Virus record (IMG/VR): IMGVR_UViG_2703718769_000008
Span: 1 to 23,051 of that record
Length of the DNA stretch: 23,051 nt
Direction: 5' to 3' (one strand)
From: a virus
Taxonomy: Duplodnaviria > Heunggongvirae > Uroviricota > Caudoviricetes
A program made the position numbers. Below are positions 21,001 through 23,051 of the stretch, piece after piece (position 1 is the first letter of the stretch; each line of letters begins with the position of its first letter).

Positions 21001-23051
21001 CGGGCATTACTGCGTATCAGGTAAGAGTGTGAATAACTGTATTTAATAACAAAATCTTAAAAGTTTAGTGAGGTACTGTGTAGTTGTCTAAATGTTGTGT
21101 ATTTTAGGTATTGCAGGATATCCCTGTAACGAAGTTTGCGTAACAGCATTTTGCCCTACGAGTTTGCCAGCCTTCCCCTGTGGCTGGCTTTTTTTATGTC
21201 TGTAACATTCAGTAGTTCAGTAAACGCGCTGGTGGTGGTGAATACCGGTCTTTCAGCTTGTTGGCTTTTTCGACAAGAGTTATTGGTGTGTCACGTTAAC
21301 CGGAATAGGGAAAAAGACATGCTGAAACAGCCGTATATGACTGAAACCGCCAGAGTGTTATTTAATGAATTAAGTGTTAACGACCCGGCGACAGTCGGGG
21401 AGATGGCGCAGAGTACTTACCTTTCACGCGAACGCTGCCAGTTAATACTGACCCAGCTCGTTATGTCGGGTAGTTAAAGCCAGCCGGAAGTCTTTACCTG
21501 TTCTGTGGATATCGCCTGGCATCTGATATTGAAATCGTGATGCGTAAACGTTTTAATGTGCTGAACCATATCATATGGGCGAAGCCGTTCAGACGTTGGA
21601 GCGCATGCTGTTGTTGCTCACTGGTATTACGAACGGTTTGCTCACGGGGATGTACACATATTAATTGTTGATGTTAATATTTCGTCATGTTATTAATACA
21701 AAATTGTAACGCATCATTCAAAGTATTATAATTATCATTTGTTGCATTTATTATGCCAACATTCCTTGTTGGTCTTCCTTCTGTTGAATACTCTATCCAG
21801 AATGAGCCGGTGTATTTTGACATTCTATATGTTGCGAATTCTTTTGCATTAATTGGTGGTTTGGTGCCGTTGAGATCCATTATATAACCACTTTCTTGAA
21901 TTGTCTTGGAAAGGCAATTGATTATTTCATTTGTCGATATTTCACTGTCGATTTGAGGATGATCCACAATTAGCCCCATGCAGAGGATGCTTGAAATTAT
22001 TATAAAAATATTTTTTATCATGATGTCTGTTTTTGTGATCTTTTAGATAGAATGTCTGCTGTGGAGATATGTATACCTCTTGTGCTCATTTATTTCAATA
22101 GATAGTTGAGCACTCATTGTGCTAATGGAAGAAGTTTTTTAATAGGGAGTATCATCAAAATCACACAATAGTAATTAATGTTGCTATTAGATAAAGAAGT
22201 ATCGCTAACTTTGATTTTGTTGAATTTGTTTTTAATAAAAGTTAGTATGGATTATATAGCAGGCATATGCATGCTGTTTTTAAAGAAACTTATTGCCCCT
22301 TTAGCCCTAATGGTCAGAGCGAGCGGTTAATAACCGCCAGGTCGCCGGTTCAAACATGGCAGGGGCACGAAGCGCTGTTAGCTCAGTTGGACAGAGCAAT
22401 TGCCTTCTAAGCAATCGGTCACTGGTTCGAATCCAGTATGGCGCACCATGCGGTCATCGTATAATGGCTATTACCTCAGCCTTCCAAGCTGATGATGCGG
22501 GTTCGATTCCCGCTGGCCGCTCCATAGAGGATTATGGGGACAGTATAATGAGCATTTTCCTGCGTTACCTTTCATCGGTAAAAATAAGTATACAACAACT
22601 ATTTATGCTGGCATTAGCTATGATAGTTATTGGTTTTCTCGGGATGTGTTTATTTGTTTACTATATTCTTATCGATAACTGATATTTTTGATATTAAACT
22701 AGAGTGGTACAAGCAGAAATTTAAACTCGCCATGAAACTGGGGTGTTAATAAAGCGATTATCATTAAGCTCGGGTTGTGAAAAATGTTAAAAGCATCACA
22801 TTTCATTATGTTGGGTACTGGATAATAACCCGTCGTTTTGTTAAAAATAATCTCGCATGGTGAATCCCCCTGTGCGGAGGGGCAATCAGCAAGTAGGTAT
22901 ATGTGATAATCGCGGATTCAGGTGCTGATACTGAATTCACCGGGAGGCACCCGGCACCATGTAGTTATGCAATGCAAATGTTCACACAAGCAAATCCCCT
23001 CTCCGGAGGGGATTTTTTTATGCAAAAAAAAGCCCGAGTGGGTTCGGGCAA

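Follow-up and report, generated by a model that had tools for sequence, protein, structure and literature searches.

The current work concerns a cluster of three transfer RNA (tRNA)-like elements, all on the plus strand, at 22294-22524 of a 23,051-nucleotide (nt) stretch of Caudoviricetes DNA (IMG/VR record IMGVR_UViG_2703718769_000008; the whole stretch is called the window below). The cluster very probably consists of a decayed tRNA-Ile2 gene followed by an intact tRNA-Arg(UCU) and a captured tRNA-Gly(UCC), and it would occupy a tRNA slot of a late operon with a role in codon supply. The slot belongs to the late operon of a lambda-like Escherichia coli prophage integrated at thrW: positions 8137-23051 of the window match, with 100% identity, a prophage that strain OkiPb01678 has at thrW, next to proA. 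The trio had been noticed in an initial annotation made from the sequence alone. Both ARAGORN and Rfam call the Arg and Gly genes, whereas the first element appears only in relaxed scans.

The spacers between the members of the array are 1-3 nt, depending on register, as had been noted. ARAGORN and Rfam did not return three standard genes with the identities ileZ-argN-argO; they returned Arg and Gly genes and, in relaxed scans, an Ile-like element. The array probably descends from an array led by Ile2(CAU), such as ileZ-argN-argO of the Shiga toxin (Stx) phages and the sister arrays Ile-Arg-Gly and Ile-pseudo-Thr-Arg-Gly. An ancestral phage would have copied the Gly(UCC) gene from glyT of the host tufB operon, and the array's own promoter would have decayed along with the first member.

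Decay of the first element

At default settings, ARAGORN missed the first element; at -ps95, it called a tRNA-Ile(aat) at 22294-22368. A permissive Rfam scan of 22200-22600 gave 28.3 bits for the tRNA family RF00005 (22295-22367; E = 6e-4 in 401 nt). The gathering score of this family is 29 bits, and the element falls below it with 5 non-canonical pairs and 1 deleted acceptor position. Intact Ile2 copies in the same slot score 65.9-72.5 bits. No tRNA was annotated at this element by the NCBI Prokaryotic Genome Annotation Pipeline (PGAP) in any carrier genome checked; the Arg and Gly genes were annotated.

A 7-bp acceptor stem is possible in the register that begins at 22294, and it leaves 3 nt, not 2, before the D stem. 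In the D stem, U12 has changed to C, and a C12.A23 mismatch replaces U12:A23, which is an identity pair reported for IleRS. The D loop, UAAUGGUCA, contains an extra U, and an A replaces G15, the partner of C48. The T stem contains G53.A61 (C61 to A) and G52.U62 (C62 to U); G53:C61 is a universally conserved tRNA pair. The anticodon loop is UUAAUAA, with the anticodon AAU, while the copies in ileX, ileY, ileZ, A34, and SHP24 are CUCAUAA; C34 of the CAU anticodon is the substrate of TilS, and tRNA-Ile2 depends on lysidine to read AUA. The 3' end is CGAA, where relatives have CCA and then a 1-nt spacer (CCA to CGA), and a genome-encoded CCA end is usual in E. coli tRNA genes. Relative to the tRNA-Ile of SHP24, the element has C32 to U and C34 to A, and its acceptor stem is out of register by 1 nt. 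Its minimum-energy fold is not a cloverleaf. The mismatch A27.C43 is also present in functional ileZ copies; thus, it is not a sign of decay. The first description of this element, with a full acceptor stem in the 22294 register, faulty D and T stems, AAU in place of CAU, and a lost CCA, was accurate in each of these points.

The element aligns end to end with ileX and ileY of K-12, ileZ of the Stx phage Lahn2, and the annotated tRNA-Ile of strain A34. Among intact genes, the tRNA-Ile2(CAU) of SHP24 is closest to it (88.6% identity over 70 nt, 65.9 bits); this gene is first in its array and lies upstream of an Arg-Gly pair 100% identical to the pair of the window. Identity to the other annotated prophage tRNA-Ile genes is about 80-83%. 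A chance resemblance is ruled out by this homology to the intact first-slot tRNA-Ile of the sister arrays.

The order of the lesions can be followed in a diverged sister locus, L003, which is a prophage remnant near serT. The acceptor stem of the Ile copy in L003 is wrecked; CAU is kept, yet the D-loop insertion and the G15 to A change are common to this copy and the first element of the window. Because L003 has the lesion together with CAU, the D-loop lesion came before the split of the window and L003, and the C34 to A change came later, on a damaged gene. Identity between the window and L003 is 74% in the first element, 86-87% in the flanks, 92% in the Arg gene, and 89% in the Gly gene. After the D-loop lesion, the element would have changed at a neutral rate or faster, by C34 to A, loss of the G53:C61 pair, and loss of CCA. 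Judged from its sequence, the first element is a dead tRNA-Ile2 gene of the ileZ type, a pseudogene. The exact element was found in 6 of 5,426 complete E. coli genomes and in one IMG/VR contig, all of one lineage, and the L003 form in three more of these genomes. IMG/VR was scanned for the AAU form with a degenerate pattern, which returned the one contig of the same lineage.

Decay and decoding adaptation had both been offered for this element in the initial annotation. The first of these is upheld by the score of 28.3 bits, the lesions, and the CAU of L003; the second is not supported, since AAU appeared after the damage. An adaptive shift of the anticodon to AAU was accordingly rejected as the leading interpretation, as L003 with the D-loop lesion keeps CAU and the element outpaces its flanks in divergence. 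That the element works as an unconventional tRNA-Ile(AAU), or as another decoder with A34 that alters the reading of Ile codons, is barely probable. Such a tRNA could draw on the 7-bp stem accepted by ARAGORN at -ps95, on a Rfam score just 0.7 bit below the cut-off, on an anticodon stem intact save for A27.C43, and on the frequent ATA and Ile codons in adjacent accessory genes. It would have to function, however, with G53:C61 and U12:A23 broken, G15 lost, an extra U in the D loop, no CCA, and a 3-nt linker between the acceptor and D stems in the sole register with a perfect stem, and its fold is not that of a cloverleaf. The codon that it would read, AUU, is common rather than rare. Moreover, the element is confined, among the 5,426 genomes and the IMG/VR contigs, to a single lineage. 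This case is a warning not to take odd anticodons in low-scoring tRNA-like elements for recoding.

The least probable of the alternatives is that the first element has been retained as a processing or structural signal of a polycistronic precursor, such as an entry site for RNase P or RNase E. Signals of this tRNA-like kind are known in other systems, and the strong acceptor-like helix and the 1-nt junction to the tRNA-Arg have been retained. The Arg-Gly pair, however, is also present in arrays without the first element, or with a Thr gene (STEC299) or a half tRNA (O158) instead; thus, the element is dispensable for the pair. RNase P recognises the tRNA-Arg itself, and the conservation of the element is no better than the neutral expectation.

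The arginine and glycine tRNA genes

A clean cloverleaf is the minimum-energy fold of both the Arg and the Gly gene, and their scores are like those of host genes. Both genes are structurally intact and are most likely functional. The Arg gene, which had been described as a good tRNA-Arg(UCU) and is called as such by ARAGORN and Rfam, is near argO of Lahn2 and the Arg gene of A34, and distant from argU of K-12.

The Gly gene has 73 of 75 bases in common with K-12 glyT (b3978), including the UCC anticodon; the alignment confirms the early remark that the sole change is G5:C68 to U5:G68 (G5 to U, C68 to G). By inspection, it retains G1:C72, C2:G71, G3:C70, C35, C36, and U73, which are the bases used by GlyRS, and its acceptor end is in this respect the same as that of glyT. 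A phage copy identical to glyT scores 64.9 bits in Rfam, versus 62.7 bits for the Gly gene of the window. The two differences make the phage gene distinguishable from glyT and traceable in experiments.

Among eleven Gly copies from phages and hosts, counted as nine distinct sequences, pair 5:68 is GC (2), UA (4), or UG (3), and pair 6:67 is CG, UA, or UG. In the argO-like phage copies, the acceptor pairs 4:69, 5:68, and 6:67 covary. The compensating changes in the acceptor pairs of both genes argue that structure has been selected in the phage lineages. On these comparisons, U5:G68 of the window reads as one state of a compensatory series, not as damage.

The proposed capture of a host tRNA-Gly is well supported, because other phages contain 100% identical copies of glyT and thrU. 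In PhiR47_1, the Gly gene is identical to K-12 glyT and the Thr(UGU) gene to thrU; the Gly gene of the UMNK88 prophage is likewise identical to K-12 glyT. Both host genes are located in the operon thrU-tyrU-glyT-thrT-tufB. The capture dates from an ancestral lineage of phages and did not occur in this phage. Unlike host glyT, the Gly gene of the window stands in a prophage late operon beside a tRNA-Arg, without flanking homology to the tufB operon. Arrival together with adjacent host DNA was considered and rejected, as the sequence after the Gly gene is unlike the glyT-thrT spacer or thrT; the capture is therefore old, or the tRNA alone survived. On this evidence, lambdoid phages took glyT and thrU from the host tufB operon and then, by compensatory changes, kept the acceptor stem of the Gly gene paired.

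Expression and codon use

In intact arrays (SHP24, Lahn2, PhiR47_1, UMNK88), a promoter of the form TTGCAG/A-17-TATTAT/TAATAT ends 9 nt before the first tRNA. A transcription start between tR' and stx2AB has been mapped in the Stx2a phage of Sakai and assigned to the tRNAs (Sy et al., PMC7547250), and the conserved promoter of the intact arrays fits this start. In the window, the corresponding site (Table 1) has one change in the -35 element, and its -10 element is without A2 and T6; from these changes, the array's own promoter is presumably inactive. A scan for promoter consensus upstream of the tRNAs found none above threshold. A further candidate picked out by eye, TTGAAT-17-TAGTAT at 22220-22248 (8 of 12 matches), is weak and was not relied on.

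The other possible source of transcription lies after the Q gene, which has 77% nucleotide identity to q of Lahn2. In Lahn2, the region from q to ileZ contains a close match to positions 21040-21200 of the window. The small RNA StxS, pR', and tR' have been described for Stx phages (PMC7547250), and by homology the candidate pR', leader, and tR' of the window would have the same functions here. After induction, the main route of transcription of the Arg and Gly genes is probably read-through from pR' under Q antitermination. It may also be observed that a prophage without stx has a pR' leader and tR' like those of Stx phages, including a GU/AUU site for RNase E at 21108-21112; such a prophage could make a StxS-like small RNA.

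Codon counts per 1000 codons were compared between the annotated genes of the identical prophage and the genes of the host flanks. AGA and AGG together amount to 12.4 in early and 8.6 in late prophage genes, and to 1.4-2.0 in the host flanks. The values are 11.7, 10.7, and 4.3-4.8 for GGA; 10.9, 19.8, and 8.9-12.7 for GGG; and 7.2, 5.5, and about 2.5 for ATA. Relative to flanking host genes, AGA/AGG are thus used 4-8 times and GGA about 2 times as often. The comparison of phage and host codon use that had been recommended therefore shows AGA/AGG, GGA, and ATA all higher in prophage genes. Supplementation of codons is the explanation proposed for tRNAs downstream of Q (PMC3636060), and the bias of the prophage toward AGA/AGG and GGA fits it. 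With the Arg and Gly tRNAs, the phage would gain capacity to decode AGA/AGG and GGA/GGG, codons that the prophage overuses. We infer that they are expressed by the read-through route, aminoacylated, and of benefit to the phage.

Several points weigh against this interpretation of a decayed Ile2 gene beside a working, codon-supplying pair. ATA is also enriched in the prophage, yet the Ile2 tRNA has been lost; codon demand alone does not, then, predict which tRNAs stay. With ileX and ileY, the host already has two such genes, which is perhaps why demand did not save the Ile2 gene. The counts for the host come from a small sample of 2,820-4,976 codons in flanking genes. With a promoter that looks inactive, the tRNAs may be silent in lysogens and perhaps contribute nothing without induction. 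The covariation comes from just 6-9 distinct sequences, which makes it supporting evidence and not proof, and recent common ancestry, rather than any demonstrated selection, accounts for the 100% identity of the Arg-Gly pair across nine genomes.

It is unlikely that the whole array is a relic, in which the Arg and Gly genes are unexpressed, merely at an earlier stage of decay, and nothing is functional. The mutation of the conserved array promoter would agree with this, as would the minus-strand AT-rich gene and the broken methyltransferase gene between tR' and the tRNAs. Sister loci are found at every stage of decay: a pseudo-Thr in SHP24; weak Gly genes in A34, O158, and STEC299; and remnants in L003. 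On the other side, the Arg and Gly genes have no structural lesion and score as host genes do; the prophage looks complete, and an IMG/VR viral contig has the same segment. A local promoter is not required for read-through from pR', and the compensatory changes speak for selection on the Arg and Gly tRNAs in the wider lineage. A decayed Ile2 gene followed by two working tRNA genes thus remains the preferred explanation.

Related arrays and neighbouring genes

The closest well-known system is the ileZ-argN-argO cluster of Stx phages of the 933W and Sakai Sp5 type, represented by Lahn2 (AM072972). It occupies the same slot, after Q, pR', and tR' and before the cargo and lysis genes. Its leader and terminator are homologous to those of the window, its first member is the homologue of the first element, its Arg(UCU) gene is argO-like, and its spacers are of a few nt. 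In the window, by contrast, the first member appears dead, an argN-type gene is absent, Gly(UCC) is third, and the array promoter is mutated. The Lahn2 gene annotated as argN was given the anticodon tcg by ARAGORN. Unlike in Stx phages, there is no stx, and the tRNAs are followed by the STnc100 small RNA and an esterase gene.

Arrays of E. coli strains are closer still. Ile-Arg-Gly of A34 (NZ_CP028741) and Ile-pseudo-Thr-Arg-Gly of SHP24 (NZ_CP104788) have the same order and 1-nt junctions as the window. Their Ile2(CAU) genes are intact (65.9-70.1 bits) and annotated as tRNA-Ile, whereas the copy of the window has decayed. SHP24 further differs from the window in keeping the array promoter and in having the extra decayed Thr(UGU); the Gly gene of A34 is weakened (46.2 bits, without CCA). 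The decayed tRNA-Thr(UGU) of the SHP24 array is of the thrU type, lies between the Ile and Arg genes (3924-3996 of locus L013), is unannotated, and scores 47 bits. Its T loop is UUCGGCU and its end CAUCA, and it is a second case of tRNA decay in such arrays.

Other sets downstream of Q in E. coli prophages are Ile/Met-Lys-Thr-Gly (PhiR47_1, UMNK88), Thr-Gly, Thr-Arg-Gly, and Ile-Arg-Gly. The Yersinia phage YeP1 has a pseudo-Met-Gly set with a member deposited as 'tRNA-Pseudo-TTG', which is a precedent for a pseudo-tRNA in such a position. Among lambdoid and P22-like phages more widely, Asn-Thr is located downstream of Q in SfI, and Sf6, ST64T, PS3, and phage 21 are reported to have one of the two tRNAs or both (PMC3636060). 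Pseudo-Ile-Arg-Gly is thus a rare composition of a known, variable kind of array, not a new kind. The composition had been called atypical at first, which holds relative to Stx phages and does not hold across lambdoid phages, where the slot varies.

The Arg-Gly pair was found at an identity of at least 90% in about 24 of the 5,426 complete genomes. For roughly 4,500 of them, the best match to the Arg-Gly query has an identity of 95-99%, which agrees with a match to host glyT. In the isolated-phage collection, no phage covers at least 80% of the 311-nt region around the array. The significance of the array beyond annotation and housekeeping is small, with one unannotated tRNA pseudogene added for a handful of E. 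coli prophages. It does offer a datable example of the birth and death of phage tRNAs, in which a D-loop lesion was followed by a change of anticodon, with loss of the promoter alongside.

Table 1. Features of the tRNA slot and its surroundings in the window
Feature	Position	Strand	Basis or remark
Antiterminator Q gene	19447-19815	+	The 100% identical OkiPb01678 prophage has the annotation 'antiterminator Q family protein' here
Candidate late promoter pR', TTTACG-16-TATGAT	20871-20898	+	Promoter-like site; Lahn2 has TTTACG-16-TATCAT just after q
StxS-like leader and putative tR' terminator	20871-21195 region; stem 21166-21188, T run to 21195	+	Homology to Lahn2
Putative remnant of the array's own promoter, TAGCAG-17 nt-TTAAAG	22257-22285	+	Ends 9 nt before G22295
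Predicted tRNA-Ile2 pseudogene, ileZ-type	22294-22371	+	Rfam, ARAGORN, alignments; position 1 in the ancestral register is G22295
tRNA-Arg(UCU), argO-like; would read AGA and AGG	22372-22448	+	ARAGORN; Rfam RF00005, 68.7 bits
tRNA-Gly(UCC), glyT copy; would read GGA and GGG	22450-22524	+	ARAGORN; Rfam RF00005, 62.7 bits
STnc100 small RNA with intrinsic terminator	22825-23024	+	Rfam RF02076, 132.3 bits, E = 2.7e-29

The gene order starts with the integrase and early genes, followed by Q, a CPBP/Abi-like gene, the candidate pR', the leader with the tR' hairpin, and a small open reading frame (ORF). Next come a methyltransferase gene that is broken and an AT-rich accessory gene on the minus strand, and after these the tRNAs and STnc100. 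Esterase, holin, lysozyme, terminase, and head genes lie downstream in the identical prophage. By its content of integrase, early, Q, lysis, terminase, head, and tail genes, this prophage looks complete.

A 272-aa ORF at 19953-20771 was considered as Q and rejected: its Pfam domain is Rce1-like/CPBP, and the ORF annotated as Q, of 122 aa, lies immediately upstream of it. This gene for a CPBP/Rce1-like (Abi-type) intramembrane protease, on the plus strand, sits between Q and the candidate pR', and relatives are without it at that position. It may be an accessory gene expressed in the lysogen or a defence gene. Another ORF, at 21674-22021 on the minus strand, is annotated as a hypothetical protein and had no Pfam match; it splits a DNA-methyltransferase gene that is intact in the related loci L010, L011, and L013. 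ATA, AGA, and AGG codons are abundant in this ORF, which borders the AT-rich stretch 22021-22293.

STnc100, with its terminator at 22992-23015, lies between the tRNAs and the nanS-type esterase and lysis genes (L016, L001). In sister prophages, a 5' module of STnc100 joins directly onto an Ile2-type tRNA that is reduced to its anticodon loop and 3' half, and this fusion immediately precedes the array (about 2340-2431 in L009 and about 2450-2545 in L010 and L011; compare 22855-22885 of the window). The fused module reads CATGGTGAATCCCCC...GGGGCA, also given as CATGGTGAATCCCCCTGTGCGG.GGGGCA, and weak Rfam matches to STnc100 (43.6 and 26.7 bits) extend across the fusions. The closing helix of STnc100, GCAUGGUG/CACCAUGC, is the inter-tRNA junction sequence. 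A permissive Rfam scan of 22780-23051 found no tRNA match inside STnc100, and a tRNA origin of this small RNA therefore stays speculation. It is very unlikely that the slot after Q is a modular tRNA cassette, the members of which are swapped, deleted, or fused as whole tRNAs by recombination at shared '...CACCA-T-GC...' junctions and, once decayed, reused as small RNA material. If this were true, the first element would be a snapshot of turnover from tRNA to small RNA rather than junk.

Directly after the tRNA-Gly, an unannotated 44-codon ORF (22549-22682, plus strand) encodes a hydrophobic peptide, MSIFLRYLSSVKISIQQLFMLALAMIVIGFLGMCLFVYYILIDN. The same frame remains open in 7 related loci, even though these have indels upstream and start with ATG, GTG, or TTG; the product may be a small membrane protein encoded in the late operon. 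An AsxR/AgvB-like small RNA on the minus strand is truncated by the end of the window, which includes just its 3' part (23025-23051); its scores, 36.5 and 29.9 bits, are below the gathering scores.

Positions 1-8183 of the window are the end of a different, P22-like prophage, with DNA-transfer proteins and a tailspike with a head-binding domain (2575-4773). The genes gtrABC for glucosylation of the O-antigen are located in this part, on the minus strand, at 4802-7846. The P22-like part adjoins the thrW att core (~8137) and the lambdoid integrase, and the arrangement points to a tandem of two prophages at thrW.

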